Shown in pieces: positions 22,249 to 52,942 of a stretch of DNA of 64,000 nt. Under the pieces are notes generated by a model. It had not been told where the DNA came from. It saw nothing but the letters and a program-made list of their open reading frames with translations, and made no database searches. The position numbers and the translations under genes are program-made. Numbering within the stretch: position 1 is the stretch's first letter; every line of letters starts with the position of its first letter. The stretch lies in IMG/VR virus record IMGVR_UViG_3300035670_005636, one strand, 5' to 3'. Source of the stretch: an uncultured virus (IMG/VR IMGVR_UViG_3300035670_005636) (taxonomy: Duplodnaviria > Heunggongvirae > Uroviricota > Caudoviricetes).

Positions 22249-22255
22249 ATAGAGA

Positions 22256-24465: not shown

Positions 24466-24470
24466 AATAA

Positions 24471-27227: not shown

Positions 27228-27280
27228 TATACACTTAACTTTTAATCATAAATAAACAATAAGTAATAAAGGAGATTTTT

Positions 27281-35270: not shown

Positions 35271-37175
35271 ATGCCAATTGCAAATGTAGCGTTATCAAAT
35301 ACCTTCAATGAGTTTCGATCAACGACAAATTCTGTCATCACGGAAGTTAATAAACTTTCTGACGGAACTGCTGTTCTAGTTGTTGATGCGATTACCGCAA
35401 ATACATTCACTGGCGTATCTTCAGACTTAAACATTTCAGCTAACACAGGCACCGATGTAGTTTCTTTAGTTACTGAATCACTTCGAATTGTTGGTACAAA
35501 TGGTATATCAACGTCAATAGCATCTTCATCGAATACCATTAATGTTGATTTGAACACTTCAGGTGTTACATCTGGAACATACGGTAGTGCATCTCAAGTT
35601 CCTACATTGGTCATTGATGCACAAGGTCGTGTGACAAGTGCAGCGAATGTAAACGTTGCAGGTGTTTCAGCATTCAATTATCACAGCGGTAATGCTAACT
35701 TTCAAATTGCTACAGCAGACGGCGGATCATTTACAGCAAGTATTGGTCAAGATTTAGGCACAAGTGCAAGTGTAACATTTCAAGATTTGTCTGTTACAGG
35801 TAATGTCACATTTACTGGTAATGTTATTTCCGTTACAGCGAACAATTTTGTTGTTGAAGATAATATTATACAGATCGGTAAGAATAATCTCACTGACGTA
35901 GTTGATTTAGGATTTTTAGGTCATTATTATAGTGGCGCCAATTTACATGCAGGTCTGTTCAGAGATGCGACAGATGGCGTATGGAAGTTTTTTGATAATT
36001 ATACTGTAGAACCTGGATCAAATACAAACATAGATGTTTCAGGATCAGGTTTTAGATTTGCCAATCTGACTGCGAATAATATTACAGCAAATGGTACGTT
36101 TTATGGATCATTAACTGGTGTAGCAGCAGTTGCTACGGTAGCAAACACATCTACACTTACAGCAGATAATACAACAAATGCTACAAATTATTTAACATTT
36201 GTAAATGCTGCAACTGGCAATCAAGCACTGAGAACTGATATAGGATTAAGTTTTAATCCAAGTACAAATACGCTAACAACTTCAAAATTTACTTTGCCTG
36301 GAAGTACAAGCGGTAACATAACTATTCAAGCAACTGCAACGGCAGGAACAACAACAATAACATTTCCTGCAACAACTGGCACTGTAATTACTACAGGCGA
36401 TAGCGGAACTGTTACTTCAACGATGATTGCTGACGGCACAATCGTCAACGGTGACATCAGTGCATCAGCAGCAATTGCAACGAGTAAAATTTCTGGTCTT
36501 GCTACATCAGCAACAACTGATACAACAAACGCTAACAATATTTCTTCGGGCACACTACCAGGCGCTAGAGGCGTAACAGCAGGATCGGCTTCAGCATCTT
36601 TTATCACATACAACGGAACAACAAAAACATCTGGGCAATTTGATGGCGGTTCAACAGCGCCAACAAACACAACAAGATTGAACTATGATGGAAATCTCTA
36701 CGCAACAAACTTTTTTGGAAATGGTTCAAATCTAACAGGTATTTCAAGTGGTTTGACTGTAAGTGATGATACATCAACAAATGCAACGAGGTATTTAACA
36801 TTTACGGATCAAACTTCAGGCACAGAAACAACAGCATTCATATCATCAACAAAACTTTATTTTAATCCATCGACTGGCACATTGAATGCTACAGTGTTCA
36901 ATTCATTGTCCGATGAAACACTTAAAAAGAACATTACAAAAATTACAAATGCAACTGATTTGATTTCATTGCTTGATGGTGTAGAATTTGAATGGGCAGA
37001 AAATGGCACCAAATCTTCTGGTTTGATTGCTCAATGGATTGAAAAGATTGTGCCTCATCTTGTTTCCAGCGGTGATAGTGAAATTAAAACAGTTAATTAT
37101 TCAGGTCTCATTGCATATTTGGTTGAAGCGGTCAAAGAGTTAAATGAGCGTGTGAAAAAGTTAGAGAGCAAATAA
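35271..37175 (+). CDS. tail fibre with C-terminal intramolecular chaperone (peptidase S74-like) domain
   Basis: Ser/Thr/Gly-rich fibre modules; C-terminal 'SDETLKKNI...GLIAQ..E...P.LV...VNY.GLIA.LVEAVKEL'. Confidence 0.88.
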   Translation: MPIANVALSNTFNEFRSTTNSVITEVNKLSDGTAVLVVDAITANTFTGVSSDLNISANTGTDVVSLVTESLRIVGTNGISTSIASSSNTINVDLNTSGVTSGTYGSASQVPTLVIDAQGRVTSAANVNVAGVSAFNYHSGNANFQIATADGGSFTASIGQDLGTSASVTFQDLSVTGNVTFTGNVISVTANNFVVEDNIIQIGKNNLTDVVDLGFLGHYYSGANLHAGLFRDATDGVWKFFDNYTVEPGSNTNIDVSGSGFRFANLTANNITANGTFYGSLTGVAAVATVANTSTLTADNTTNATNYLTFVNAATGNQALRTDIGLSFNPSTNTLTTSKFTLPGSTSGNITIQATATAGTTTITFPATTGTVITTGDSGTVTSTMIADGTIVNGDISASAAIATSKISGLATSATTDTTNANNISSGTLPGARGVTAGSASASFITYNGTTKTSGQFDGGSTAPTNTTRLNYDGNLYATNFFGNGSNLTGISSGLTVSDDTSTNATRYLTFTDQTSGTETTAFISSTKLYFNPSTGTLNATVFNSLSDETLKKNITKITNATDLISLLDGVEFEWAENGTKSSGLIAQWIEKIVPHLVSSGDSEIKTVNYSGLIAYLVEAVKELNERVKKLESK

Positions 37176-37178
37176 AAA

Positions 37179-38168
37179 ATGACATATAGTGTTAATGGCA
37201 TAACAGTCATTGATATCAGTAAGAACGCTACATTTACAAGTGCAAATGTGGTTGGTAGTGTAGGATTTGCTGCAACTGATGGCGGTTTTCAAGGTGTAGT
37301 GAGTGGATATACAAGTGGTGGATATGCACCAACACCCACCAACGTCATAGACAAGTTTCCTTTTGCTTCAAATGCAAATGCTACAGACGTTGGTGATTTG
37401 ACTGTGGCTAGATTCTATGTAGCAGGCCAATCTTCAACAGTTTCTGGCTATACAAGCGGAGGAGTTTCTGGGGCAACAAGGTATAATGTCATCGACAAGT
37501 TTCCTTTTGCGTCAAACGCTAACGCTACAGACGTTGGTGATTTGACTCAGGTTAGACAGGGTCCAGCAAGCCAATCTTCAACAGTTTCAGGCTATTCAAG
37601 TGGTGGTTTTGTACCACCAGCTACCAACGTCATTGACAAGTTTCCTTTTGCATCAAATGCAAATGCTACAGATGTTGGTGATTTGAGTGTGGTGGGTAGA
37701 TATGGTTCAGTAGGGCAGTCTTCATTAATTTCCGGTTATACAAGTGGTGGTGCTATAGCACCACTTGGCAGTTTATCCAACGTCATTGACAAGTTTCCTT
37801 TTGCATCGGACGCTAACGCTACAGATGTTGGTGATTTGAGTCAGACTAGATCATATGCAGCAGGTCAATCTTCAACAGTTTCTGGTTATACGAATGGTGC
37901 TTTGATTGCCCCAGGACCCAGCAACGTCATTGACAAGTTTCCTTTTGCGACAGATGGTAATGCTACTGATGTTGGTGATTTGACTGTGGCTAGATACCTT
38001 GCAGCAGGACAATCTTCAACAGTTTCAGGTTATACGAGTGGTGGTAAACCGGCGCCATCCACTACAACTAACGTCATTGACAAGTTTCCTTTTGCATCGG
38101 ACGCTAACGCTACAGATGTTGGTGATTTGAGTCAGGGTAGATATGCTTCAGCAGGTCAACAAGATTAA
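37179..38168 (+). CDS. six-repeat Kelch-like beta-propeller protein, paralogue 1
   Basis: 6 x ~47-aa 'GYTSGG-x-NVIDKFPFASNANATDVGDLT-x-R-x-AGQSSTVS' repeats. Confidence 0.8.
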   Translation: MTYSVNGITVIDISKNATFTSANVVGSVGFAATDGGFQGVVSGYTSGGYAPTPTNVIDKFPFASNANATDVGDLTVARFYVAGQSSTVSGYTSGGVSGATRYNVIDKFPFASNANATDVGDLTQVRQGPASQSSTVSGYSSGGFVPPATNVIDKFPFASNANATDVGDLSVVGRYGSVGQSSLISGYTSGGAIAPLGSLSNVIDKFPFASDANATDVGDLSQTRSYAAGQSSTVSGYTNGALIAPGPSNVIDKFPFATDGNATDVGDLTVARYLAAGQSSTVSGYTSGGKPAPSTTTNVIDKFPFASDANATDVGDLSQGRYASAGQQD

Positions 38169-40160
38169 CAAATCAATGTTCAATAACTATAACAAACAAC
38201 TATGACATTCTACGCTAACAATGCATTGATTATTGATCAAACATCGAGAGAAACTTTCTTTGCGAACGTTTTAATTTTTGGATCAAATAGTTCTTATTTG
38301 TTTGTTGATGATACTTTTCAAGGCACCGTGAGTGGTTATACAAGTGGTGGTTATCTAATACCAGGTAATTCAAACGTCATCGATAAGTTTCCTTTTGCAT
38401 CCAATGCAAATGCAACAGACGTTGGTGATTTGACTTTGGCTAGATATGGTCCTGCTGGACAATCTTCAACAGTTTCAGGTTACTCAAGTGGTGTCGGTAA
38501 TGTCATCGACAAGTTTCCTTTTGCATCCAATGCTAACGCTACAGACGTTGGTGATTTGACTCAGATTAGATCCTATCCAGCTGGCCAATCTTCACCAGTA
38601 TCTGGTTATTCAAGTGGTGGTTTTTCACCGGGAGGAACCACTAACGTCATCGACAAGTTTTCTTTTGCATCAGACGCTAACGCTACCGATGTTGGTGATT
38701 TGACTCAAGCAAGTCAAGGTCTTGCAGGACAATCTTCAACAGTTTCAGGTTATACAAGTGGTGGAGCTACTGTACCAGTAACCAACACCATCGACAAGTT
38801 TCCTTTTGCATCCAATGCTAACGCTACAGACGTTGGTGATTTGACTGTGGCTAGAAATTACTCAGCAGGCCAATCTTCAACAGTTTCTGGTTATGTAAGT
38901 GGTGGTTTTACATCATCTGGAGCCACTAACGTCATCGACAAGTTTTCTTTTGCAACCAATGCAAATGCTACTGACGTTGGTGATTTGTCTCGGGGTAGAT
39001 ATGGCGGTGGAGGTCAATCCTCAACAGTTTCTGGTTATGTAAGTGGTGGTAGTCCACCAAACGTCAACACCATCGACAAGTTTCCTTTTGCATCCAATGC
39101 TAACGCTACAGACGTTGGTGATTTGACTGCGATTAGAACTTTGTCAGCGGGACAACAAGATTAACAATATAACCAATAAACCATTATGACATTTACAGCA
39201 AACGGCACAACATTCATTGATTCAAGCAGAGGTGCAAACACTACTGCACTCAATGCTTTTGGTGAAAATTCTTACTTAGAAGTTTTGAGTTTGCCAAATG
39301 CTGTTGGCGAAACGAGTGGATATACAAGTGGTGGTTTTGTACCACCAGTCTCCAACGTCATTGACAAGTTTCCTTTTGCATCGGATGCAAGTGCTACAGA
39401 CGTTGGTGATTTAACTCAAGGTAGATATAGTCCAGCAGGGCAATCTTCAACAGTTTCTGGTTATACAAGTGGTGGTACACCAGGACCCGTTAACATCATC
39501 GACAAGTTTCCTTTTGCTTCAAACGCTAACGCATCAGACGTTGGTGATTTGACTGTGGCTAGAAGATATGCAGCGGGACAATCATCAACAGTTTCTGGCT
39601 ACTCAAGTGGTGGTTTCGCTTTACCGGGAACAACCAATACCATCGACAAGTTTCCTTTTGCTTCTAATGCGAATGCTACAGACGTTGGTGATTTGACTGT
39701 GGCTAGATATGATGCGGCAGGACAATCTTCAACAGTTTCTGGATATACGAGTGGTGGTACACCAGGAGCCAGCAACGTCATTGACAAGTTTCCTTTTGCT
39801 ACAGATGGTAACGCTACAGACGTTGGTGATTTGACTGTGGCTAGAATTGGACCAGCAGGTCAATCTTCAACAGTTTCTGGTTATTCAAGTGGTGGTTTTG
39901 TACCACCAGGAACCAATGTCATTGACAAGTTTCCTTTTGCGACGAATGCTAATGCTACAGACGTTGGTGATTTGACTGTGGCTAGATATTATTCAGCGGG
40001 GCAGTCTTCAACAGTTTCTGGTTATTCAAGTGGTGGTCAACCGGCGCCTGGTGCAGGTGGCACCAACACCATCGACAAGTTTTCTTTTGCATCGGATGCA
40101 AATGCTACAGACGTTGGTGATTTGACTGCGGCTAGACGTGGTAATGCAGGGCAACAAGAT
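37300..40160 (+). repeat. 18 coding repeats of ~140 nt (cluster A)
   Basis: Recurrent DNA blocks GACAAGTTTCCTTTTGC, GACGTTGGTGATTTGACT and CAATCTTCAACAGTTTC separated by variable segments. Confidence 0.95.
38202..39164 (+). CDS. six-repeat Kelch-like beta-propeller protein, paralogue 2
   Basis: Same repeat, six copies. Confidence 0.8.
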   Translation: MTFYANNALIIDQTSRETFFANVLIFGSNSSYLFVDDTFQGTVSGYTSGGYLIPGNSNVIDKFPFASNANATDVGDLTLARYGPAGQSSTVSGYSSGVGNVIDKFPFASNANATDVGDLTQIRSYPAGQSSPVSGYSSGGFSPGGTTNVIDKFSFASDANATDVGDLTQASQGLAGQSSTVSGYTSGGATVPVTNTIDKFPFASNANATDVGDLTVARNYSAGQSSTVSGYVSGGFTSSGATNVIDKFSFATNANATDVGDLSRGRYGGGGQSSTVSGYVSGGSPPNVNTIDKFPFASNANATDVGDLTAIRTLSAGQQD

Positions 40161-40163
40161 TAA
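39186..40163 (+). CDS. six-repeat Kelch-like beta-propeller protein, paralogue 3
   Basis: Same repeat, six copies. Confidence 0.8.
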   Translation: MTFTANGTTFIDSSRGANTTALNAFGENSYLEVLSLPNAVGETSGYTSGGFVPPVSNVIDKFPFASDASATDVGDLTQGRYSPAGQSSTVSGYTSGGTPGPVNIIDKFPFASNANASDVGDLTVARRYAAGQSSTVSGYSSGGFALPGTTNTIDKFPFASNANATDVGDLTVARYDAAGQSSTVSGYTSGGTPGASNVIDKFPFATDGNATDVGDLTVARIGPAGQSSTVSGYSSGGFVPPGTNVIDKFPFATNANATDVGDLTVARYYSAGQSSTVSGYSSGGQPAPGAGGTNTIDKFSFASDANATDVGDLTAARRGNAGQQD

Positions 40164-40227
40164 TAGAATTAACAACATTAACATAATTCATAAAATTAAC
40201 AAAATTAAAAATTAATACAATCAACAC

Positions 40228-40256
40228 TTGACACCAAATCAGAAAGCATATATAAT
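40228..40256 (+). promoter_or_regulatory. perfect-consensus sigma70 promoter with A-rich UP-like element
   Basis: TTGACA (40228-40233), 17 nt, TATAAT (40251-40256); A/T-rich tract at about 40165-40227. Confidence 0.85.
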
Positions 40257-40284
40257 GTAACTTTATAATTCTTTGTGATAATCT

Positions 40285-41118
40285 ATGAATATAATCCATT
40301 TTTGCGGTGGGTTGCCAAGGTCAGGCAGCACTTTGTTGATGAATCTTCTCCAACAAAATCCAAGAATATTTACGACAGGCACATGTGCGCTGTATGAAAT
40401 TCTTCGTGATAAAATTCTAATCAAATCAAGATACTCCGAAACATTCCAAGCAATGTCTACAGACCAAGCAGACAGAGCAATGTATGGGCTAATTCATGGT
40501 GCAACAAAAGGTTGGTTTGAAGGCTTAACAAACAAACCCATAGTCATTTCAAAACGCCACGGATGGTCTTCATTATTCCATTTATATCCAAAATCAAAAT
40601 ACATATGCTTGATTCGTGATTTGCGAGATGTTGTCGAAAGTTTTGAACGAGTCAACAATAAAACTTTAGCATTGCATACATACGCAGACTCACAAGTGAT
40701 GACTCCTGCAATGCATGTTCATGAAAAGTACAAATATTATTTTGATGAACCTAATGCATTTTCAGTCAATCTTCAAACTGAAATTCCACGAATGATGGAA
40801 GTCTTTCAGAGAACACCAGAAAAAGTGATGTTCATTCGATATGAAGATTTCACTAAAGAACCTTTATACATGCTGAAAAAACTTTATGCATTTTTGAATG
40901 AGAATTATTTTTCGCATGACTTGACCGACATCAAACAATCAGAATTATTTGAGCATGACCATGCATACTTCAGAGAGAAAACGGACCACGAAACTTTGCC
41001 GACCTTTAGATTTCATAGTGAACCAAAAAGAAATCTGCCAGAAAGTTTTCATAGCAGAGTGCTAAAAGAAAATCGCTGGTTCTATGAAGCATTTTATCCA
41101 AGTGAGATTTCAACATGA
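40285..41118 (+). CDS. sulfotransferase
   Basis: 5'-PSB 'GLPRSGSTLL', 3'-PB 'RDLRDVVES', 'IRYEDF...P'. Confidence 0.88.
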   Translation: MNIIHFCGGLPRSGSTLLMNLLQQNPRIFTTGTCALYEILRDKILIKSRYSETFQAMSTDQADRAMYGLIHGATKGWFEGLTNKPIVISKRHGWSSLFHLYPKSKYICLIRDLRDVVESFERVNNKTLALHTYADSQVMTPAMHVHEKYKYYFDEPNAFSVNLQTEIPRMMEVFQRTPEKVMFIRYEDFTKEPLYMLKKLYAFLNENYFSHDLTDIKQSELFEHDHAYFREKTDHETLPTFRFHSEPKRNLPESFHSRVLKENRWFYEAFYPSEIST

Positions 41119-41663
41119 TGAAAGAAAATTCAATCGATATATTTCCTACACGCATTTGGGGATTCATACTGAATGACCATAAGTATCAATCTGCTGATTA
41201 CATAGAAGCAATTGAAACGATTGAAAAGACTGAACCTTCAATGCGAATAAGTAATTTTGGTGGATATCAAACGCATCCAAATTTACATACCATTCCTGTT
41301 TTTCGTGAGTATGTGTCTGCTATACAAAATATAGTATCAAAATGCATTGACCATCCTGTTAAAATAACTGAGATGTGGGGTAATGTTAACTATAAGTATT
41401 GTCACAACGGCGCACATACTCACGGTGGTGCATTGTCGGGTGTATTTTATCTTAAAGCACCAGCAAATTGTGGAAGATTGATGCTATGTAATCCTGCTGT
41501 GAGAAGCGATGGTCAGTATATAAGACAGCCAAACTATCCAATTGTGCCTGAGAATCTTGCACTCATTATTTTTCCTAGTTGGTTAGAGCATTATGTAGAA
41601 CCAAATTTGAGTGATGAAAAGCGAATCAGCATTTCCTTTAATTTTGGAATCATTAAATCATGA
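41115..41663 (+). CDS. 2OG-Fe(II) oxygenase (TIGR02466-like)
   Basis: 'W.N.N', 'HTH...LSGVFYL', 'FPSWLEH.V.PN', 'RISISFN'. Confidence 0.85.
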   Translation: MMKENSIDIFPTRIWGFILNDHKYQSADYIEAIETIEKTEPSMRISNFGGYQTHPNLHTIPVFREYVSAIQNIVSKCIDHPVKITEMWGNVNYKYCHNGAHTHGGALSGVFYLKAPANCGRLMLCNPAVRSDGQYIRQPNYPIVPENLALIIFPSWLEHYVEPNLSDEKRISISFNFGIIKS

Positions 41664-42394
41664 GAAAACTGATTGCCGTATTGTGTACGGATGATTGGCA
41701 ACCAGAAATTAGAGCGATGACATTTCCTCTGTTTCGATATCATGCCGCTAAGATTGGTGCAGATTTTCATGTCATCAATGACAGAAAATTTCCTTCAAGT
41801 TATCCGCTATGTTATGAGCGATTTCAATTGTATGAGATTTCAAAACATTATGATTGGACTATTCAATTAGATGCAGACTTGCTTCTTCATCCAGACACAC
41901 CAGATTTTACACGGCATGTTGACAAGTCACAATTATTGATTTCATCTCCTGGATTTGCTTCAGACTCTTATCAGATGGATGAATATTTTCTCCGAGATAA
42001 AAGAGATGTTGGTGTCGGCGGTTTCATTACAATCAACTCTGATTGGACAAGAGACTTCTGGAAACCACCTGAAGATTTATCGCCTGAACAAGCGATGGCA
42101 AGATGCACACCAAGAACACATGAATGGCGAGATAGACAATTCTATCATGACCACATTGTGCTTGATTACATATTGAGTAGAAATGTTGCTAAGTATGGGC
42201 TTCAATATGTTACGTTACAGGATTTATTTACAAGAATGGTCGATGAAAAAAGAGCGAGTATCAAATGGATTGATGATTATGTGATGCATAATGGTGCTTT
42301 GAAATACCATGAAAAAATTATACACATCAAAAACTATCTGAATAAACATTGGAAGATTGATTTAAATCATCCGTACTTTAAAAAATATCTATGA
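41660..42394 (+). CDS. putative glycosyltransferase (GT-A, DxD)
   Basis: 'A.KIGADF', 'YDW.IQLDADLL' DxD motif. Confidence 0.6.
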   Translation: MRKLIAVLCTDDWQPEIRAMTFPLFRYHAAKIGADFHVINDRKFPSSYPLCYERFQLYEISKHYDWTIQLDADLLLHPDTPDFTRHVDKSQLLISSPGFASDSYQMDEYFLRDKRDVGVGGFITINSDWTRDFWKPPEDLSPEQAMARCTPRTHEWRDRQFYHDHIVLDYILSRNVAKYGLQYVTLQDLFTRMVDEKRASIKWIDDYVMHNGALKYHEKIIHIKNYLNKHWKIDLNHPYFKKYL

Positions 42395-43173
42395 TTACAT
42401 TGATTGGGCATGGCTACATCGGCACACACATAGCCAAACGATTGAGAAACTTTGAATGGATCTCACATAAAGATGTGCCGAATAAGCATACAAAATTTAT
42501 CATCAATGCAACAGGATACATCGGATATCCAAATGTAGAATCGTGCGAAACAAATCGACAGATATGTATGGAAGCAAATGTTCTTTATCCGCTTTCGTTA
42601 GAGTATCAATATGATGTGCCTATATTACATATCACATCGGGTTGTGTCTATCAAGGATATCCTGAGAATGGATGGAAAGAAACGGATGAGCCAAATTTAA
42701 ATTTTGATACAGGTCCTTTCTATAGCGGTTGTAAAAATTTATTTCAAACATTGATGAAACCATATCTGAATAAGTCTTATGTGTTTCGAATAAGAATACC
42801 ATTTGATGATTTGCCAAATCGAAAGAATCTATTGTACAAATTAGAAAATTATGATACCATTGTGAATTATAAAAACAGTATCACATGCATTGATGATTTA
42901 ATTGGATGTGTTCTTCTTTTTATTAAAAGTTTTCCACCGTTCGGCATATATAATATTGTAAACAAAGGAATTATTTCAAATAAAGAAATAGCGGAAAGAA
43001 TGGAATTGAATGATAAGATTTTTGTCTCACCAAATGAATTTGAAAAGAATTCTACAATTGTACGAAGTTCTTGTAGTTTGAATACAGAAAAAATAGAAAA
43101 AATTTATCTGATGCCATCAATACATGACGCACTGGATAACACAATAGTTCATTATAGGAAAAACAGATTATGA
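42391..43173 (+). CDS. NDP-sugar epimerase/reductase (RmlD or NRS/ER-like SDR)
   Basis: 'GHGYIG', 'NATGYIG.PNVESCE', 'SGC.Y', catalytic 'YSGCK', 'RIRIPF'. Confidence 0.8.
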   Translation: MITLIGHGYIGTHIAKRLRNFEWISHKDVPNKHTKFIINATGYIGYPNVESCETNRQICMEANVLYPLSLEYQYDVPILHITSGCVYQGYPENGWKETDEPNLNFDTGPFYSGCKNLFQTLMKPYLNKSYVFRIRIPFDDLPNRKNLLYKLENYDTIVNYKNSITCIDDLIGCVLLFIKSFPPFGIYNIVNKGIISNKEIAERMELNDKIFVSPNEFEKNSTIVRSSCSLNTEKIEKIYLMPSIHDALDNTIVHYRKNRL

Positions 43174-44447
43174 GTCAGACTAAAGAGTATTTTGATAAAA
43201 ATGGTTATGTTGTTTTAAAAGATGCTTTGTCAAAGGACCAGTGCAATCATTTGGTCAAACATATGTTTGCACTTCATGAGCAAGGTAAACTTGTCAAAGA
43301 TGACCAGTGCCCGCTTTCAGATGCGGTTTATGGTGATCCAATTTTTGATGAGATTCTCCAGAAATTTGCGAAACCAATTGGTGATGCTGTAGGTAGAACG
43401 CTGCTGCCAACGTACACATACGCAAGAATTTATCGAAATGGTGAAATTCTCAAGAAGCATAAAGACAGACCTGCATGTGAAATCTCTGCAACGATGACGC
43501 TAGGCTTTGATGCTAAGCCTGTTTGGCCTATCTTTTTTGATGAAGAAAAAGAAATACCTGTATCAATGGAGCAAGGTGAGTTAGCAGTTTATAAAGGATG
43601 TGAAATTCTACATTGGAGACCTGCATTCAAAGGTCAATGGCACGTTCAAGTGTTCTTTCACTATGTAGATGCAAACGGACCTTATAAGGATCATGTTCGT
43701 GATGGCAGAGAAACATATGGTATACAAAAACATTCTAACGTCAAAGCATATGAAGCGGCTAATCCCAAACCACCTGTATTGAAACACGAAATTGCTAATG
43801 ATATACAATTTAAAAAGCCTGTATTCAATACGATTACAATACCTAGCAACGAAAAATTCTTTCCTGGTTATTTTTGTATTGAAAATGAGAATCTACCACA
43901 ACTTAGATTTACACCACAAGAGTGCCAGAGAATTATTGATTTGACAAAGCAAGTATATCCTAGTTCAGCAAGTGTAGGCGGATCTTCAGACAACAGTCGA
44001 ATTGCAAGAGAGATTCGGTCAGCAAATATTTTTGTTCTAGAAAATGACGAAGAGAACCGATGGATCTACGAAAAAGTTGCAAATGTTATATCAATCGTCA
44101 ACACATTACATTTTGATTATGACATTGTAGGCATCACACATGGGCTTCAATTGATTGAATACAAAGCGGATACACCAGTTCAAGGGCACTATAATTGGCA
44201 TGTTGACGCAGGAAATGGTGAGCCTGTTCATCGAAAAATATCCTTTACTGCACAATTGTCAGACCCTTCTGATTATGAGAACTGTGAACTCATTATAAAT
44301 AATCACGGTACTGAAATCGTAGGAACAAAAGAAAGAGGTTCCATTCATTTATTTCCAAGTTACATGCCGCATAAAGTAGCACCGATTACAAAAGGTGTCC
44401 GTTATGCATTAGTTATTTGGATTCATGGATCTAAACGTTTCCGATAA
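43170..44447 (+). CDS. tandem double 2OG-Fe(II) oxygenase (prolyl-hydroxylase/PKHD-like)
   Basis: Domain 1 'YARIY..GE.LKKHKDRPACEIS...HWR'; domain 2 'YNWHVD...RKIS...FPSYMPH.V.PIT.GVRY.LV.W'. Confidence 0.88.
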   Translation: MSQTKEYFDKNGYVVLKDALSKDQCNHLVKHMFALHEQGKLVKDDQCPLSDAVYGDPIFDEILQKFAKPIGDAVGRTLLPTYTYARIYRNGEILKKHKDRPACEISATMTLGFDAKPVWPIFFDEEKEIPVSMEQGELAVYKGCEILHWRPAFKGQWHVQVFFHYVDANGPYKDHVRDGRETYGIQKHSNVKAYEAANPKPPVLKHEIANDIQFKKPVFNTITIPSNEKFFPGYFCIENENLPQLRFTPQECQRIIDLTKQVYPSSASVGGSSDNSRIAREIRSANIFVLENDEENRWIYEKVANVISIVNTLHFDYDIVGITHGLQLIEYKADTPVQGHYNWHVDAGNGEPVHRKISFTAQLSDPSDYENCELIINNHGTEIVGTKERGSIHLFPSYMPHKVAPITKGVRYALVIWIHGSKRFR

Positions 44448-44464
44448 AATAAAAGGAGATACAT

Positions 44465-44812
44465 ATGGCAGTTGTAGAATATAAACATCATGTTTACTTA
44501 GGTGACCATAGAAGACACATTCCAGGATTCATCACTGACGGTGAACACTGGTACAATCCAACCAATCATACTATGGTTGGTTGGGCAAATGATAATGCAG
44601 ACTATTATGTGCCTTGGTCTACGCTTAAAGTTTTGACAAAAGAAGATATTGTTCAAAGAGTTATAGCATTACATAATCAAAATCCTATTATGGTTCAAGA
44701 CAATTCTAATCCTGAAGTGCCTATGGGCATGAGAGCATTAGCAAATGAAGCGGAAGTTAGAACTCATGCTGAAGCATGGTATGATGCGTATGTAGCAAGA
44801 AATTCTGCGTAA
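44465..44812 (+). CDS. hypothetical protein
   Basis: 115-aa ORF with strong AAGGAG SD. Confidence 0.7.
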   Translation: MAVVEYKHHVYLGDHRRHIPGFITDGEHWYNPTNHTMVGWANDNADYYVPWSTLKVLTKEDIVQRVIALHNQNPIMVQDNSNPEVPMGMRALANEAEVRTHAEAWYDAYVARNSA

Positions 44813-44815
44813 TCT

Positions 44816-45559
44816 ATGAATCATTATGAGAAGGTTGCTACATTAAAACGATTCACAGATAGCATAGGTACAGTATACGGTACAGAAGATTTTGCGATTT
44901 ATTTGTATAGCATTATAAAAATGACAAAGCCAAAAACGGTGCTTGAATTAGGCACTGGTTTTGGCACAACAACATTATGGGCAGCACTAGGGCTACAAGA
45001 AAACAATTCAGGCGTTATACACACCGTTGACGACGGCAGTGAATGGGAAATATTGAGAAAAGCAAAACATCTTTTTGAAACATATTATAGAGAAGATTAT
45101 AAAGTTTACATATACGATTTGATTCAGCAGTTTGACTTTTCAAATCAGATTTCGTTTTATCATCAAAAAATTACCAAAATTAATTATTTGAATGAGATTG
45201 ATATACTATTTTGTGATTACTCTCATGGACCATACTCAGTTATCAAATTATTTACTGACTATCTAAGCCGCATGAGTGAAAATAGTTATATCTTTATTGA
45301 CTCAGCGTCTACATACTATCAATCATATCATACACTTGAAGCAATGATATCATATTTTAATGCGGGTAAAATACCTAAAACTGTTTATGAAATGATTGAT
45401 GGCGCTGATTTACAAGCATTTCATCAACGCATGATGACTTCAAAATTTGAACTGTCACATTTGATTGAAAACAAACAAAGAAACCAAAACAGCACAGCAC
45501 AAATTAAAATATCTCCGATTGACATCATGCCACAACCTAGAGTGAGTATCCGATTTTGA
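44816..45559 (+). CDS. class I SAM-dependent methyltransferase (Methyltransf_24-like)
   Basis: 'KPKTVLELGTGFGTTT', 'TVDD', 'IDILFCD.SH'. Confidence 0.8.
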   Translation: MNHYEKVATLKRFTDSIGTVYGTEDFAIYLYSIIKMTKPKTVLELGTGFGTTTLWAALGLQENNSGVIHTVDDGSEWEILRKAKHLFETYYREDYKVYIYDLIQQFDFSNQISFYHQKITKINYLNEIDILFCDYSHGPYSVIKLFTDYLSRMSENSYIFIDSASTYYQSYHTLEAMISYFNAGKIPKTVYEMIDGADLQAFHQRMMTSKFELSHLIENKQRNQNSTAQIKISPIDIMPQPRVSIRF

Positions 45560-46101
45560 TTAAAGTATTAGATGATGTGATTTCAAATAAGTATTCACAA
45601 TTTTTATTTGATGAGATTGTGAAAGTTCCTTGGACTTTTGTGCCAAATCTTTCTTATGGTAATACGGATAACTATGATGCTGCTGGTTTTTCTTATTCAT
45701 TCTATCTTCATGAAAACTTCAATCGAAAAGAAAAAAGAACAATCGAAAATCCAGAATATAAGTATGTTGCACCAATGCTTCTTTCAGCGTTTGATGCGTT
45801 TGCTTTGAATGCGACACTTGAAAATGTGTTTAGATCCAGAGTAAGACTGACACTAAATCGTGAAAAATCTGTAGCGGAAGATAAGCATGTAGACTATAAT
45901 TTTTCGCATTTGGTCCTTCTTTACTACATAAATACTACGGACGGAAATACGGTGCTATATGATGGTGATACCATTATTGAAAGTATATCACCTAAACGTG
46001 GGCGATGCGTACTCTTTGATGGTTCAATTGTTCATGCATCGTCATCTTCGACGTTAGCACCAAGACTGGTGTTAAACACAAACATTATATTTTATAAATA
46101 G
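45556..46101 (+). CDS. 2OG-Fe(II) oxygenase
   Basis: 'HVD', 'LYYIN.TDG.T', 'PKRGR.VLFDG...HASS', 'R.VLN'. Confidence 0.8.
   Translation: MIKVLDDVISNKYSQFLFDEIVKVPWTFVPNLSYGNTDNYDAAGFSYSFYLHENFNRKEKRTIENPEYKYVAPMLLSAFDAFALNATLENVFRSRVRLTLNREKSVAEDKHVDYNFSHLVLLYYINTTDGNTVLYDGDTIIESISPKRGRCVLFDGSIVHASSSSTLAPRLVLNTNIIFYK
46093..46100 (+). promoter_or_regulatory. T4-type late promoter
   Basis: TATAAATA upstream of the ORF at 46123. Confidence 0.75.
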
Positions 46102-46122
46102 AACATTACAGGAGATTGAATA

Positions 46123-47070
46123 ATGACTGAGGAAAATAAGAATGCATTAAGCACTGAGGTTGCAGTCTTTGAAGAAATTCGAAGAGACTTAGCAATTCGG
46201 AGCAATGAAGTGAAAGTTCCTATGGCAATGGTATTTGGTCGTGGAACAACAGGCGGAAATCTTCAGAGTTTCGGTGGAAAATCTTTAGCAGAAAACACAC
46301 AAAAAGTTGACTACGCTTTAGCAAACGTCGGCGAACTTCAGACAATTTGGAATCATAGCCACACACAGTGGATGTGGAAGCATTTGAATTTAAGTTGGCA
46401 TGAACCAATGCGAAACATGCGTCAAATTGCTGCTGAAACAACAAGAAAGAAAGGAGCATTGAACGAAGCAAAATGGCGTCAAGTTGAAGCAGAAATCAAA
46501 ATTCGAAAAATCGAAGACGAACTTGAGAAAGGTACCGCTGATGGTACAATTGACTACTGGCGTGAAGTTGAACTCAAAGTCAAACTTGCTAAGTTGAAAG
46601 AAGGCATTGCTGAAGGCATTGTTGTCATTGAAGGTGCTATGAAAGATATATTGGTTCTCAATGAACTTTATGAGCAACTAAAAGAAAAGGTTTCAGGTTT
46701 CTCTGAAGCAGACGTTGAAAAAGAAGAAACAAAGAGTCATTTGAAACGTGCTTTAATTCAGAGCATTCGTGATGTTCGAATGTCTGGTGCAATCACAAAA
46801 GCGGAGCAAGAATACATCGAACAGATTGGTATCAATCCTATGAAACTTCAAGGATTGCTTCGTGCGTATGTTGACAGTGAAGCAAAATCAGACACATGGG
46901 ACATAAGTGGTCTGTATGAATTTGTTGATAAGTTAACCGATGAATTGGTTGAAGTCTACAAAGTTGATGAAAAGCGCATGGCACTTCAAGGATTCAGTAC
47001 AAGTATTTTTGAAGAATTTGCACAATCAGAAAAACTTGCACTTCTTGCAAAACCTGAGGAGAAAGCGTAA
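46123..47070 (+). CDS. hypothetical alpha-helical/coiled-coil protein
   Basis: 315 aa, Glu/Lys-rich heptads, AGGAG SD, late promoter upstream. Confidence 0.75.
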   Translation: MTEENKNALSTEVAVFEEIRRDLAIRSNEVKVPMAMVFGRGTTGGNLQSFGGKSLAENTQKVDYALANVGELQTIWNHSHTQWMWKHLNLSWHEPMRNMRQIAAETTRKKGALNEAKWRQVEAEIKIRKIEDELEKGTADGTIDYWREVELKVKLAKLKEGIAEGIVVIEGAMKDILVLNELYEQLKEKVSGFSEADVEKEETKSHLKRALIQSIRDVRMSGAITKAEQEYIEQIGINPMKLQGLLRAYVDSEAKSDTWDISGLYEFVDKLTDELVEVYKVDEKRMALQGFSTSIFEEFAQSEKLALLAKPEEKA

Positions 47071-47204
47071 TGCCTCCGATGATGTTAGCAAAGAAAATTT
47101 TAGATTTGGATGAGCAAGAACTAATTAAAGTTCTAAGACAATTGGAAATGGAAGACAGAGATTTATATAATACACTCAAAGAAAAAATCGAAGACATACT
47201 TTAA
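47070..47204 (+). CDS. small hypothetical protein (44 aa, not in the supplied ORF track)
   Basis: TAATG stop/start overlap with the upstream gene, GAGGAG SD; MPPMMLAKKILDLDEQELIKVLRQLEMEDRDLYNTLKEKIEDIL. Confidence 0.6.
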   Translation: MPPMMLAKKILDLDEQELIKVLRQLEMEDRDLYNTLKEKIEDIL

Positions 47205-47216
47205 AGACAAGAAGAG

Positions 47217-48230
47217 ATGACAATCCGCTTTAAAAAAGATAGAATTGAATTTGAGAACGGTGCAAATTCTTTTATTTTACTTGAGGAATCAGGCGGATTT
47301 GCTTTCACAGGAAGAATGGCTGCAACAGTGGTTGCAGCCGCCTTTCAAGGCACTGTGAGTGGTTATACAAGTGGCGGTTATGCTGTGCCATTCTCTAACG
47401 TCATTGACAAGTTTCCTTTTGCTTCAAATGCAAATGCGACAGACGTTGGTGATTTGACTCAAGGTAGATATGGTGCAGCAGGGCAATCTTCGTCAGTGTC
47501 TGGTTATACAAGTGGCGGTGGGGCAGCTCCAGGAATCGTCAACACCATCGACAAGTTTTCTTTTGCTACCAATGCGAACGCTACAAATGTTGGCGGCCTG
47601 TATTATGCCAGACGATATATTGCAGGACAATCTTCAACAGTTTCTGGATATACAACCTCTGGCAACAATCCGCCTGTACCGCAGGCAGGCTTTGCTATCG
47701 ACAAGTTTCCTTTTGCAACCGATGCAAACGCTGCAAATCTTGCTCAATTGAGTGTGAGTAGATATGGTGCAGCAAGTCAATCATCAACAGTTTCTGGTTA
47801 TGCAAGTGGTGGTAATCCAGGAGCACCATCTCACTCTAATGTCATTGACAAGTTTTCTTTTGCGTCCAGTGCGAATGCATCAGACGTTGGTGATTTGACT
47901 GTGGCTAGATATTATGTGGCTGGGCAATCTTCAACAGTTTCTGGTTATGCAAGTGGTGGTACTGCTTTACCAGGAACTACCAACGTCATCGACAAGTTTC
48001 CTTTTGCGTCAAATGCTAACGCAACTGATGTCGGTGATTTGACTCAGGGTAGATATCAGTCAGCAGGCCAATCTTCAACAGTTTCTGGTTATACAAGTGG
48101 TGGTCAAACAGCAGCACCATCAGCCGTCAACACCATCGACAAGTTTCCTTTTGCATCAGATGCGAATGCATCAGACGTTGGTGATTTGACTCAGGCTAGA
48201 CGATTCGGTGCAGCGGGGCAACAATTCTAA
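47217..48230 (+). CDS. six-repeat Kelch-like beta-propeller protein, paralogue 4
   Basis: Six repeats, the third more divergent. Confidence 0.8.
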   Translation: MTIRFKKDRIEFENGANSFILLEESGGFAFTGRMAATVVAAAFQGTVSGYTSGGYAVPFSNVIDKFPFASNANATDVGDLTQGRYGAAGQSSSVSGYTSGGGAAPGIVNTIDKFSFATNANATNVGGLYYARRYIAGQSSTVSGYTTSGNNPPVPQAGFAIDKFPFATDANAANLAQLSVSRYGAASQSSTVSGYASGGNPGAPSHSNVIDKFSFASSANASDVGDLTVARYYVAGQSSTVSGYASGGTALPGTTNVIDKFPFASNANATDVGDLTQGRYQSAGQSSTVSGYTSGGQTAAPSAVNTIDKFPFASDANASDVGDLTQARRFGAAGQQF

Positions 48231-50247
48231 AAACAATCATGGCAATCTACATATACCCAGATAGAATTCAGTTTTCAACATACGCACTTCGCTTAGATGA
48301 TTATGGACTGCGTGTTACAAATTCTACATCATCGACAGTCAACGGAACATTTACTGCTGTCAGTGTACAAGGTGTTTCACCTCTTGAAGGTACTGTGAGT
48401 GGTTATACGAGTGGTGGTTATGTGCAACCGACCATCCTCAACACCATTGACAAGTTTCCTTTTGCGACAGATGGTAATGCTAGCGATGTTGGTGATTTGA
48501 CTGTGGCTAGATATAGTGCAGCAGGGCAATCATCAACAGTTTCTGGCTACTCAAGTGGTGGTTCTGCACCATCAAGCACCACCAACACCATCGACAAGTT
48601 TCCTTTTGCGTCAAACGCTAACGCTACAGACGTTGGTGATTTGAGTGTGATTAGATTTCGTGTAGCAGGGCAATCTTCAACAGTTTCTGGTTATACAAGT
48701 GGCGGTACGTTACCAATAACCAACGTCATCGACAAGTTTCCTTTTGCAACCAATGCGAATGCATCAGACGTTGGTGATTTGACTGTGGCTAGATCCTCAT
48801 TAGCAGGTCAATCTTCAACAGTTTCAGGTTATTCAAGTGGTGGTTTAGTACCACCATTAAGCAACGTCATTGACAAGTTTCCTTTTGCATCGAATGCTAA
48901 CGCAACTGATGTTGGTGATTTGACTGTGGCGGGTAGATATGGTTCAGGGCAATCTTCAACAGTTTCAGGATATACAAGTGGTGGTGATACACCAGCAACC
49001 GTCAACACCATCGACAAGTTTTCTTTTGCGACAGATGGTAATGCTACAGACGTTGGTGATTTGACTGTGGCTAGAGAGCAATCAGCTGGACAATCTTCAA
49101 CGGTTTCAGGATATACAAGTGGTGGTTATTTGCCACCAAACACCAACGTCATCGACAAGTTTCCTTTTGCGTCAAACGCTAACGCTACAGACGTTGGTGA
49201 TTTGACTCAGGCTAAACGAAATGTGACAGGTCAACAAGATTAAATCTTAACATAATACATACAAAAATGGCAATTCGAATTCTTTCAAACAATATAAAAA
49301 TAGGTGATTATACACTCTCTGAAAATGCTAATGGCATTTTCTTTGATGGCACTGCGAGATTTTCTTCGACGATTGATATGGCGGGTAGATATATAGGCGG
49401 CACTGTGAGTGGTTATACAAGTGGTGGTTTAGTACCACCATTAAGCAACGTCATCGACAAGTTTCCTTTTGCGACAGATGGTAATGCTAGCGATGTTGGT
49501 GATTTGACTGTGGCTAGACGTGGTGGTGCAGGGCAATCATCAACAGTTTCTGGATATACAAGTGGTGGTTATTCACCAGCCACCAACACCATCGACAAGT
49601 TTCCTTTTGCTTCAAACGCTAACGCTACAGACGTTGGTGATTTGACTGTAGCTAGATTTCTTATAGCAGGTCAATCTTCGTCAGTTTCTGGCTACTCAAG
49701 TGGTGGTACACCACCATCCACCAACGTCATCGACAAGTTTCCTTTTGCTTCAAACGCTAACGCTACAGACGTTGGTGATTTGACTGTTATTAGATGGAAT
49801 GCAGCAGGTCAATCTTCGTCAGTTTCTGGCTACTCAAGTGGTGGTTTTGCGCCACCTCAGGTAAACACCATCGACAAGTTTCCTTTTGCTACAGATGGTA
49901 ATGCATCAGACGTTGGTGATTTGACTGTGGCTAGATATGTTGGTGGTGATGGTCAATCTTCAACAGTTTCTGGTTATACAAGTGGTGGATATGGTCCTAC
50001 CAACTCCAACGTCATCGACAAGTTTCCTTTTGCTACAGATGGTAATGCATCAGACGTTGGTGATTTGACTGTGGCTAGATATTGGACGGCAGGGCAATCG
50101 TCAACAGTTTCAGGATATATAAGTGGTGGGCGGGTAGCCCCGCCAATCGTCAATACCATCGACAAGTTTCCCTTTTCAACCAATGCGAATGCTACTGATG
50201 TTGGTGATTTGACTCAGGGTAGATATGGTGCAGCAGGGCAACAAGTC
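47350..50247 (+). repeat. 18 coding repeats of ~140 nt (cluster B)
   Basis: Same DNA blocks as cluster A. Confidence 0.95.
48239..49243 (+). CDS. six-repeat Kelch-like beta-propeller protein, paralogue 5
   Basis: Six repeats. Confidence 0.8.
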   Translation: MAIYIYPDRIQFSTYALRLDDYGLRVTNSTSSTVNGTFTAVSVQGVSPLEGTVSGYTSGGYVQPTILNTIDKFPFATDGNASDVGDLTVARYSAAGQSSTVSGYSSGGSAPSSTTNTIDKFPFASNANATDVGDLSVIRFRVAGQSSTVSGYTSGGTLPITNVIDKFPFATNANASDVGDLTVARSSLAGQSSTVSGYSSGGLVPPLSNVIDKFPFASNANATDVGDLTVAGRYGSGQSSTVSGYTSGGDTPATVNTIDKFSFATDGNATDVGDLTVAREQSAGQSSTVSGYTSGGYLPPNTNVIDKFPFASNANATDVGDLTQAKRNVTGQQD

Positions 50248-50250
50248 TAA
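49267..50250 (+). CDS. six-repeat Kelch-like beta-propeller protein, paralogue 6
   Basis: Six repeats. Confidence 0.8.
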   Translation: MAIRILSNNIKIGDYTLSENANGIFFDGTARFSSTIDMAGRYIGGTVSGYTSGGLVPPLSNVIDKFPFATDGNASDVGDLTVARRGGAGQSSTVSGYTSGGYSPATNTIDKFPFASNANATDVGDLTVARFLIAGQSSSVSGYSSGGTPPSTNVIDKFPFASNANATDVGDLTVIRWNAAGQSSSVSGYSSGGFAPPQVNTIDKFPFATDGNASDVGDLTVARYVGGDGQSSTVSGYTSGGYGPTNSNVIDKFPFATDGNASDVGDLTVARYWTAGQSSTVSGYISGGRVAPPIVNTIDKFPFSTNANATDVGDLTQGRYGAAGQQV

Positions 50251-50296
50251 ATAGTTTTATATTTTATCATTACTTTATCATTATGGAGTTTATATC

Positions 50297-51133
50297 ATGC
50301 AAAAAATTCTCATCATGGGGCTTCCAGGTTCCGGCAAAACTTATTTCGCAGAACGGTTAAAAACTTATCTTGAACTTCACGGAGAGCGACCACTTGATAC
50401 GCTCAGTGATGCACCATTTCCTAGAATGAATGCAAGAGTTGATTGGTTCAATGCGGATGACATTCGGAAACGATTCAACGATTGGGATTTCTCAAAAGAA
50501 GGGCGCATTCGGCAATCACTGAGAATGGCAGAGTTTGCAATGCGATGCACTGGTGAATACGTCATTTGTGATTTTGTAGCACCACTGCCTGAAATGCGTC
50601 ACAATTTCAAAGCAGACTGGACAATCTGGATGGATACCATCAACACAAGTCGCTATGAAGATACAAACAAAGTCTTTACATCACCAGAAATCTATGACTT
50701 TAGAATCAACGAAAAGAATGCGGAAGTCTGGGTCCAGTATGTAGGTGAACGTATCATAGCAAACCAAAGAAGACCGATGTTTGATTGGCGCAAAGAAACT
50801 GTACAGCTACTTGGGCGCTGGCAACCTTGGCATCCTGGGCATCGTGCTTTATTTGAACGAGCATTAGCAAAAACTGGTCAAGTTTGTATCATGATTCGTG
50901 ATTGCCAAGGATGGAATGGAAGCAATCCGTTTGCGATTGAAGAAGTCAAAAATTATATCCGAAGAGACTTAGATCCACTTCATCAAGGCAAATATGAAAT
51001 TCTTGTTGTTCCAAACATTGTAAACATCACATACGGAAGAGATGTTGGCTATAAGATTGAACAAGAAGTATTTGATGAGCAAATTCATTCTATTTCAGCA
51101 ACCAAAATCCGAAAAGAAATGGGCATTGAATGA
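50297..51133 (+). CDS. adenylyl-sulfate kinase (CysC-like) fused to an HxGH nucleotidyltransferase domain
   Basis: 'GLPGSGKT', 'NADDIR...DWDFS.EGR.RQ..R', 'DFVAP', then 'GRWQPWHPGH' and C-terminal 'ISATKIR'. Confidence 0.8.
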   Translation: MQKILIMGLPGSGKTYFAERLKTYLELHGERPLDTLSDAPFPRMNARVDWFNADDIRKRFNDWDFSKEGRIRQSLRMAEFAMRCTGEYVICDFVAPLPEMRHNFKADWTIWMDTINTSRYEDTNKVFTSPEIYDFRINEKNAEVWVQYVGERIIANQRRPMFDWRKETVQLLGRWQPWHPGHRALFERALAKTGQVCIMIRDCQGWNGSNPFAIEEVKNYIRRDLDPLHQGKYEILVVPNIVNITYGRDVGYKIEQEVFDEQIHSISATKIRKEMGIE

Positions 51134-52122: not shown

Positions 52123-52124
52123 AA

Positions 52125-52940: not shown

Positions 52941-52942
52941 TC

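Follow-up and report, generated by a model that had tools for sequence, protein, structure and literature searches.

A homogenised blade framework with hypervariable loops in six predicted Kelch-type propeller genes of a T4-like myovirus

The 64,000-nucleotide stretch of DNA recorded in IMG/VR as IMGVR_UViG_3300035670_005636, which comes from an uncultured virus and is referred to below as the window, carries six genes with six repeats each, and in these repeats a framework that is near-identical even in DNA alternates with two loops that differ in almost every copy. The locus raises the question of what keeps the framework of 36 repeats alike while their loops remain different, and of what such proteins might be for. 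The original prediction, made from the letters alone, was that recombination or gene conversion through the constant blocks reassorts the loops, giving a binding repertoire like that of antibodies or variable lymphocyte receptors (VLRs) with no dedicated reverse transcriptase or invertase. Our analysis supports a pattern that is real and little described, but not an antibody-like system.

The six genes all lie on the + strand and, according to the list of open reading frames (ORFs) of the window, form two triplets at 37179-40163 and 47217-50250 (a 3+3 layout). Every copy is a complete ORF with a start codon, an N-terminal anchor and six blades: g1 (37179..38168, 329 aa; anchor 37179-37301, blades 37302-38165), g2 (38202..39164, 320 aa; anchor 38202-38330) and g3 (39186..40163, 325 aa; anchor 39186-39314) in the first triplet, and g4 (47217..48230, 337 aa; anchor 47217-47357), g5 (48239..49243, 334 aa; anchor 48239-48397) and g6 (49267..50250, 327 aa; anchor 49267-49407) in the second. 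Repeats anchored on the motif DKF number exactly six in each of the six proteins, with a spacing of 42-51 aa and a length of about 47 aa, and the count of six genes by six repeats was therefore borne out. Aligned, the 36 blades read SGYtSGG, loop 1, N[VT]IDKFPFA[ST][ND][AG]NA[ST]DVGDLT, loop 2 around a conserved Arg, and GQSStV. Framework columns show almost no entropy, and high values are seen in two segments, one after SGG and one around the conserved Arg, and mean pairwise nucleotide identity is 0.853 in the core (63 nt) and 0.822 in SGYTSGG, compared with 0.582 in loop 2 and 0.359 in loop 1, in agreement with the earlier description of a constant framework with two segments that vary in length as well as in sequence. 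The most divergent frameworks are those of g4 blades 2 and 3, and the shortest loop 1 (2 aa) belongs to g2 blade 2.

The likeness of the framework extends to its codons, which across the 36 blades are fixed by alignment column: Lys is AAG in 36/36, Leu TTG in 34/36, Thr ACT in 29/29 and Arg AGA in 33/33. Val is GTC (22/22), GTT (34/35) and GTG (18/20) at three different columns, and for Asp one column has GAC (35/36) and a second GAT (34/34). Given that one amino acid has different fixed codons depending on the column, general codon bias is not the explanation. Other codons are fixed in relatives, whose loci carrying genes of the propeller family we designate by L-numbers: L003 has AAA in 15/15, L009 mostly TTA and ACA, and L011 CTT and GGA.

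The core identity of 0.853 within the window compares with values between genomes of 0.733 when gene and blade are orthologous (n=126) and 0.737 when they are not (n=4,086), and the same-codon fraction is 0.762 within the window, as against 0.486 for orthologous and 0.487 for non-orthologous pairs between genomes. The repeats are thus more alike within the genome than orthologous repeats are between genomes. The N-terminal 30 aa of syntenic genes from six relatives, on the other hand, find their window counterpart in 19 of 25 slots, where about 4 would be expected by chance; the g1 N-terminus is orthologous to slot 1 of L050, L070, L073 and L079, and that of g4 pairs with slot 4 in 5/5 relatives. 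Judged from these comparisons, the gene slots are orthologous across genomes and the blades are not.

A tree was built from 84 framework nt of 192 blades, which represent seven genomes; the pattern missed one blade of the window and five of L079, and these were left out. On this tree the genome label changes 21 times, compared with a mean of 126 and a minimum of 116 after shuffling, whereas the gene-slot label carries no signal (85 changes vs 87.6, with 121/500 shuffles as low), and neither does slot combined with position (129 vs 129.8). The blades therefore cluster by genome, and trees following gene duplication with positional orthology, the pattern that would have told against exchange, were not seen, although a weak signal of blade position remains and is taken up below. 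Nor was there repeat-number polymorphism of the kind left by unequal crossing-over, six blades being counted with a loose pattern in 212 of the 260 family genes of at least 290 aa (2 have three, 7 four, 35 five and 4 seven, and the 44 with fewer than six are likely undercounts). These comparisons of sequence show that the framework of the 36 blades evolves in concert within the genome.

The tracts that the blades share are mosaic. There are 108 maximal exact matches of at least 30 nt between blades; the longest, of 70 nt, lies at 49869/50013 (g6 blades 4 and 5), and one of 64 nt at 37488/49148 (g1 blade 2 and g5 blade 6) links both triplets, the loops being unrelated in either pair. Indeed, loop identity is at background level in blade pairs with identical cores, and g5 blade 4 and g6 blade 1 have loop 1 and its flanks in common and differ in the segment between the third and fourth strands of the blade. 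Blade similarity within the window exhibits no gene effect and no cluster effect, and the distance matrices of five segments are almost uncorrelated. Across 69 informative sites, 88% of site pairs are incompatible, with r2 of 0.16 at 1-3 nt and about 0.03 beyond 10 nt. Gene-conversion testing of the 36 aligned blades, which the original prediction had suggested, found identity tracts longer than in permuted order: a GENECONV-like permutation gave a global maximum of 51 polymorphic sites (p=0.003), with p=0.001 for the mean per-pair maximum and p=0.007 for the core only. Variants stand at intermediate frequency and are unlinked (e.g., AAT 18/AAC 17; GCA 15/GCT 10/GCG 10), which would fit a "population" of 36 blades exchanging short tracts. 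The proposal of recombination or gene conversion through the constant blocks is thus supported by genome-specific codons, clustering by genome, the tract tests and the mosaic tracts themselves.

The loops behave differently from the framework. Loop 1 measures 2-9 aa and loop 2 measures 7-8 aa, and each has 35 distinct sequences in 36, that is, one exact duplicate for each loop type; between paralogues the loops are saturated with changes. The 37-nt stretch at 48834-48870 in g5 blade 4 is indeed repeated exactly at 49418-49454 in g6 blade 1, 37 nt being the maximal exact length, and the ALPGTTN pair starting at 39618 and 47964 and the three occurrences of FVPP at 37608, 39336 and 39897 were likewise where they had been placed. 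Nucleotide identity is 83-89% in the FVPPxx trio and 76% in the xALPGTT pair. Among 1,515 loop-1 sequences from 95 loci, LVPPLS and ALPGTT are found nowhere else, and FVPP is found seven times, three of them in the window; since the recurrences are specific to the window genome, they appear to have arisen by copying inside it. Part of the loop similarity is, on these sequences, a theme of the whole family, in which loop 1 has a modal length of 6, Pro in 82% and [FYLW][AVS]PP in 6%. Loop reassortment is rare by this measure, and little of it is visible. The loop 1 of g6 blade 4 (49825-49968), FAPPQV, occurs also in L004, L005, L007 and L008, with 9 occurrences in 5 loci, as a result of shared ancestry or convergence. 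A comparison of the rates of identical loop-1 sequences within and between loci (0.0010 vs 0.0006) was set aside, many loci being overlapping copies of the same phage.

The part of the original prediction that found no support is the antibody- or VLR-like repertoire, against which stand the single duplicate in 36 for each loop, the stable orthologous slots with conserved N-termini, the weak signal of blade position and the lack of silent cassettes. Donor cassettes of the antibody or VLR type were rejected, as all copies are complete and no partial cassette arrays were seen in 36500-51000. On the other hand, the statement that there is no dedicated reverse transcriptase or invertase agrees with what we found: Pfam and PHROGs gave no match to a reverse transcriptase or to an integrase/recombinase family among the 53 window ORFs scanned, and there are no meaningful inverted repeats, the inverted pairs being only 17, all imperfect, of 18-24 nt and 76-86% complementary. 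A diversity-generating retroelement (DGR) is unlikely given the lack of a reverse transcriptase match in these ORFs and the variation of the loops in length, and a shufflon or other invertible segment was rejected because all six genes lie on one strand and no recombinase family was matched. The window does encode gp59-like and gp32-like genes (PHROGs). Phage T4 recombines via about 50 bp of homology. Replication of the T4 type is recombination-driven, as stated in the available text of PMC6337909.

What the blades would build was suggested by an AlphaFold2 model of g3, constructed from an alignment of 47 family members, which has a mean predicted local distance difference test score (pLDDT) of 91.2 and a predicted template modelling score (pTM) of 0.84 and is poor only at residues 28-40. 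After residue 41 it contains 24 strands in six sets. DSSP places the strands of the blades at 84-87, 91-95, 58-63 and 71-75, so that the four strands per blade, A to D, are AGQS, SGYTS, VIDKFP and TDVGD. Foldseek matched the model to KLHL12, KEAP1, KLHL3 and the designed protein SAKe6 with template modelling scores of 0.76-0.79 for the query (TMq) and 0.86-0.93 for the target (TMt), at a root-mean-square deviation of 1.7-2.6 Å and a sequence identity of 14-20%; the best matches among predicted viral structures were proteins of uncultured Caudovirales, two proteins of phage S-SKS1 and a Kelch-motif protein of a Burkholderia phage. This confident model predicts that g3 is a six-bladed Kelch-type β-propeller, with four antiparallel strands per blade and a closed ring.

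It follows from the strand order that loop 1 joins strands B and C and that loop 2 joins D to the next A, and in a four-strand meander of the kind modelled the B-C and D-A loops share one face. This face is the ligand face in Kelch domains of the KEAP1 type. The opposite face of the model has a tight A-B turn and a conserved seven-residue C-D loop. Each gene would therefore present one face of 12 variable loops and, the functional unit being the propeller, the region would amount to six binding faces rather than 36 independent binders. In the blades, strand B is followed by a Gly-Gly pair and strand A is preceded by an Arg, features that we take to resemble the Kelch repeat motif.

An N-x-S/T motif lies in the conserved C-D loop of 34/36 blades (e.g., 39369-39389 in g3 blade 1), and the family consensus there is D-A-N-A-T-D-V-G-D; one might speculate about glycosylation at this site or metal binding by the loop. 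Five of the six proteins scored against DUF4907 (PF16250), a 67-position profile, with sums of 30.2, 24.6, 36.2, 32.4 and 36.4 bits, at a curated cut-off of 25 bits that no single stretch reaches; the alignments involve 22-32 residues and are confined to profile positions 23-61, and the scores probably represent summed partial similarity of the repeats. A literature search on DUF4907 found no papers, and the family profile had 0 matches among PDB sequences. The PHROG scan, which covered g1 and g4 of the six propeller proteins, matched both to phrog_19111 ("unknown function"), at E 9.9e-20 and 2.5e-21, respectively.

The anchors may hold the proteins together. A complex model of g4, g5 and g6 (998 residues) scored 0.69 (0.69, 0.65 and 0.70 in separate runs), compared with 0.00 for the best of 3 controls; of 157 solved complexes 116 attain that mark, as do 2 of 215 mismatched pairs. 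The pLDDT of the partner is at least 82 and the contacts agree to at least 69%. The confident interface is N-terminal only, involving residues 5-41 of g4 (chain 1), 1-46 of g5 (chain 2) and 1-40 of g6 (chain 3, the partner), and the model thus supports binding among the g4-g6 anchors. Given that three distinct but related anchors are kept as sets of three, one heterotrimer per gene triplet is the most likely arrangement in terms of this model, homotrimers also being possible, and the overall picture would be of a short trimeric stalk bearing three free propeller heads.

The family to which these proteins belong is large. A search that scored 8,000 candidates returned more than 6,234 homologues of g3, all unnamed, and IMG/VR contains 254 stretches matching the family. 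The Atlas clusters of the family are 100% viral, with Kelch_1 in 18% of the members of one neighbouring cluster, and in a collection of one genome per species for 185,579 bacterial and archaeal species only 4 short contigs of metagenome-assembled genomes carry it. The genes are usually arranged in tandem arrays of 2-9, and the 3+3 layout with an insert is found also in L050, L070 and L079 and partly in L073. At L070:2676-5676 the first triplet has irregular, partly degenerate blades and the second is regular. Some members of the family, at L060:1285-7666 and in proteins P0026 and P0032, have an extra N-terminal domain of about 130 aa before the six blades (precomputed as PF01833, IPT/TIG), a domain that fits surface display.

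By Pfam and PHROGs the window belongs to a T4-like myovirus, in which the propeller genes lie between baseplate/fibre and neck genes. Upstream are gp5/25/6/7/8-like baseplate genes at 20664-28579 and a tail-fibre-like protein of 634 aa (35271..37175, + strand) with a C-terminal intramolecular chaperone domain (Peptidase_S74, E 2.1e-10; tail fibre/baseplate PHROGs), whose gene stops 4 nt short of g1; the gp8-like baseplate gene and this fibre gene are separated by a 2,137-aa structural protein of phrog_358 (unknown function), at 28607-35020. Downstream, the module is bordered by gp13-, gp14- and gp15-like neck genes (51379..53668, + strand; T4_neck-protein, T4-gp15_tss; phrog_211, phrog_460, phrog_227), and terminase, sheath, tube and portal genes also lie downstream. 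The gp15 is 45-47% identical to those of Pelagibacter phage HTVC008M, cyanophages and Melnitz phages. In T4 itself, the place taken here by the six propeller genes is occupied by the baseplate-periphery, short-fibre and whisker genes.

The triplets are separated by an inserted enzyme cluster (40285..46101, + strand) identified with Pfam and PHROGs, which comprises a sulfotransferase (40285-41118), three 2-oxoglutarate- and Fe(II)-dependent (2OG-Fe(II)) oxygenases (41115-41663, 43170-44447 and 45556-46101), a weakly matched RmlD-like protein (42391-43173), a methyltransferase (44816-45559), all on the + strand, and two ORFs without a family match. The cluster is syntenic in part in L050, L026, L060 and L003. 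For dioxygenase-sulfotransferase neighbourhoods of phages and bacteria, hydroxylation followed by sulfation of co-encoded fibre-like proteins has been proposed (in the available text of PMC2938197), and by analogy the propellers or the fibre may be substrates of the inserted enzymes. Directly upstream of the second triplet is an all-alpha protein of 315 aa (46123..47070, + strand). It is strongly conserved, with 63 relatives in metagenome contigs at 48-85% identity and one further weak match at 25%, and always lies just 5' of the second triplet; its AlphaFold2 model has a pLDDT of 70 and long helices at 99-140, 145-190 and 195-221, its fold has no counterpart in the PDB at E<=0.001, and its sequence matches neither Pfam nor PHROGs. 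Candidate roles are those of an assembly factor and of a partner in the stalk. Directly after g6 comes a kinase-like protein (50297..51133, + strand) with an N-terminus like adenosine 5'-phosphosulfate (APS) kinase and a weakly cytidylyltransferase-like C-terminus, which matches phrog_10255 "kinase" (E 8.6e-48) and is syntenic in L050, L026, L024, L020 and L062.

Elsewhere in the window, a 1,717-aa protein (7895-13048, - strand), endolysin-like at residues 326-527, adjoins a holin-like ORF and baseplate hub genes; a collagen-like tail-fibre protein lies right after the portal gene (60621-62111); and the tail-tube family phrog_45 has three ORFs, at 14508-15053 (-), 57710-58264 (+) and 58277-58888 (+), the last two being adjacent paralogues. 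Megablast found no near-identical phage record for the window, and tblastn gave a sole match, Synechococcus phage S-SKS1, at 27.6%. Run X4 holds fragments of a relative with roughly 91-98% identity in unique genes, and in a scan of metagenomes no contig exceeded 85% protein identity for a neighbouring gene, the one that came closest being short.

We consider it fairly probable that the six proteins are virion-associated paralogous propellers that are trimerised by their anchors, bind the host and have their framework homogenised by recombination. According to this account, the six paralogues of a T4-like myovirus would probably be parts of the virion, each made up of some 40 aa of N-terminal anchor and, after it, a six-bladed Kelch-type propeller. 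The anchors would trimerise, each trimer having a short stalk, close to the baseplate or fibres, from which three heads project; such assemblies are probably three-headed host-binding parts of the tail. Each head would offer one face of 12 variable loops to a ligand on the host surface, giving six different faces per phage. The framework would be kept alike by repeated homologous recombination or gene conversion of short tracts, within and between the six genes, driven by the ordinary recombination machinery of the phage. The loops would stay different either because the tracts start and stop in identical blocks or because homogenised loops are selected against, and an occasional tract would carry a loop along, producing the few loops that are shared.

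Several results weigh against this account. None of the six proteins matches a Pfam Kelch model at E<=0.01, the family is known as "unknown function" in PHROG and "hypothetical protein" in Atlas, and both the location in the virion and the binding function are steps that we infer. Loop 1 is rich in Pro, Thr, Ala and Ser and almost uncharged, which fits weakly constrained linkers too. Homogenisation is not universal, as the within-locus same-codon fraction ranges from 0.43 to 0.78 over 53 loci, with a baseline of 0.466 between loci, and is 0.493 in the fairly close relative L073; the window ranks second of the 53, and the degree of homogenisation varies between triplets and between lineages. 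Blade position leaves a weak but significant signal in the tree (120 changes vs 129.1 after shuffling, 2/500) and one within the window (18 vs 23.3, 0/500), suggesting that exchange is somewhat biased to blades in register and that homogenisation is not register-free. The pairwise homoplasy index (PHI) is significant for the nearest sites only (p=0.0105 at w=3, p=0.54 at w=10), and saturated recurrent change at few sites could add to the incompatibilities; given this limitation of PHI, we place the weight on the tract test and the comparison between genomes. Finally, the complex model was made from small alignments of slot orthologues and has three chains, unlike the cases on which its score was calibrated, and close cousins of a true partner also pass that score, which makes heterotrimers and homotrimers indistinguishable by it.

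It was not unreasonable to consider that the blades are an actively shuffled library, with loops reassorted at the population level into an antibody- or VLR-like repertoire without a reverse transcriptase. Such a library would account for the mosaic tracts and the loops common to different genes and blade positions, for blade similarity without gene or cluster effect and for the recurrence of LVPPLS and ALPGTT in the window genome alone, and recombination genes of the T4 type are present. However, one duplicate in 36 per loop is little for a library, the six slots and the 3+3 order are kept in L050, L070 and L079, six blades are found in 212/260 family genes, there are no silent cassettes, and the joints in the Logan contigs (e.g., 37984>48872 and 49519>47994) are flanked by only 21-41 nt on their sides, which is what words shared between repeats would produce. 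Nothing points to programmed or population-level loop shuffling, the run data being contigs only, which break in the repeats and could not have displayed population variants, and we regard this reading as improbable. If instead each propeller had recently been amplified from a single blade, the similarity would reflect young common descent, which is how highly repetitive propellers of the Kelch superfamily are read in the available text of PMC9218822, and the second place of the window in homogeneity among the 53 loci would be understandable. Amplification is nevertheless unlikely, in that all six genes, with N-termini orthologous in diverged phages, would need to have been regenerated out of a single blade in this lineage; a star-like burst would leave singletons for the most part and not intermediate-frequency variants in linkage equilibrium; and near-identical cores run across both triplets with unrelated loops.

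Ordinary ancient paralogues, in which purifying selection and codon bias preserve the framework and unconstrained loops drift with no exchange, would explain why framework residues are conserved family-wide, why loop composition is simple and why some relatives have no excess codon sharing. They would not explain different fixed codons for the same amino acid at different columns, other codons fixed in other genomes, or identity that is higher within the genome than between orthologues of different genomes, and this reading is very unlikely. A different objection is that the proteins are not adhesins: they might be enzymes, might serve the hydroxylase/sulfotransferase cluster as substrates or scaffolds, or might act in host takeover outside the particle. 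Enzymes do occur among Kelch folds, the enzyme cluster is wedged between the triplets and partly syntenic in relatives, and the N-x-S/T motif is in the C-D loop of 34/36 blades; the modification of co-encoded fibre-like proteins proposed in the accessible portion of PMC2938197 could also be read in this sense. The loops, however, have no invariant polar residues that would suggest a catalytic site, the variable face is the usual functional face, the genes sit in the tail module and modification is compatible with an adhesin, so that we attach little probability to this objection. Misassembly of the region is unlikely as well. The Logan contigs of run X1 do break into pieces of 224-428 nt in the repeats, and such repeats are reported not to be recovered from Illumina assemblies (available text of PMC11761791 / 10.1101/2025.01.13.632504). 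That a short-read assembler crossing between repeats made the mosaic is nonetheless hardly credible, given a longest exact match of 70 nt, intact frames and six-blade counts, the same architecture and genome-wise codon sets in independent contigs of other studies, and five X1 pieces inside the triplets that differ from the window at 0-1 positions, among them 49182-49454, which crosses the g5/g6 junction.

Known systems resemble this favoured picture of concertedly evolving, host-binding propellers in part. The WD40 repeats of het-d, het-e and HNWD in Podospora are described in the available text of 10.1101/2025.01.13.632504 as having high identity by concerted evolution, hypervariable positions on the interaction face and exchange between paralogous loci. 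The phage family is like these repeats of fungal NOD-like receptors (NLRs) in having concertedly evolving propeller repeats with variable positions on one face; it differs in being Kelch-type, in belonging to a phage tail module rather than to an immune receptor, in varying by whole loops, length included, where the fungal repeats vary at four codons, and in a repeat number fixed at six with no length polymorphism seen. Pereira & Lupas 2022 (PMC9218822) list, in the text available, the Kelch superfamily and viruses among cases of near-identical blades within one propeller and read them as fresh amplification of a single blade. The homogeneity described here, unlike theirs, extends over six genes whose N-termini are orthologous, and this argues for conversion; their main text contains none of the words phage, hypervariable, concerted and gene conversion. 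In Gp45, the receptor-binding protein of Staphylococcus phage phi11, a baseplate trimer is held by an N-terminal stem, and its three propellers barely touch and are thought to bind sugar (available text of PMC4901313). The g4-g6 model has the same logic of an N-terminal trimer with separate propeller heads, but the propellers of Gp45 are five-bladed, its stem is helical, it has a C-terminal tower and it is a homotrimer of one gene; no sequence relation to it was found, the profile search of the PDB giving 0 matches.

The jumbo phage vB_PcaM_CBB encodes the Kelch-type proteins CBB_550, CBB_552 and CBB_554, and CBB_552 was found in the particle by mass spectrometry (available text of PMC5259590). 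Kelch proteins of large phages are also among the BFVD structures that match the g3 model. These too are six-bladed Kelch-type propellers in a phage, but they match Kelch models of Pfam/InterPro, which the window family does not, and arrays with a homogenised framework are not described in the accessible part of that paper. A Kelch-repeat protein has been noted in cyanophage P-HM2 (PMC3037559), and long-read data on marine viruses show an enrichment of Kelch repeats (PMC9238414), in each case according to the available text. Our literature search, which lay outside subscription journals and supplements, found no description of the phage family, its arrays or its homogenised framework. Variation of receptor-binding proteins by other means is familiar, since DGRs act on those of phages, where a constant scaffold in tail proteins carries variable ligand-binding residues. 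The propellers have the same apparent aim of a constant scaffold with variable ligand-binding residues, but their variation includes changes in length, is not confined to template adenines and comes with no pair of template and variable repeats.

Whatever their function, such repeat regions are hard to assemble and easily misread, which calls for caution with similar loci. The framework evolution described here extends concerted evolution with hypervariable binding sites, a pattern known from fungal and bacterial immune-type receptors, to phage tail proteins. A bolder reading, to which we would give a small but real chance, is that the tailed phages of this family turn their own recombination machinery to generating receptor-binding diversity without a reverse transcriptase, the near-identical framework serving as the recombination substrate and the loops moving among the six faces of two three-headed heterotrimers, thereby changing host range in populations; were this true, it would be the phage counterpart of the fungal NLR repeat system. 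The blades also offer a natural Kelch scaffold of almost perfect six-fold symmetry, and designed symmetric propellers are among its closest structural matches. Environmental phages carry the family in great abundance, and it has no name; should its members be the heads with which common myoviruses of fresh water and the sea recognise their hosts, they would provide a handle on the host range of phages that are mostly uncultured.

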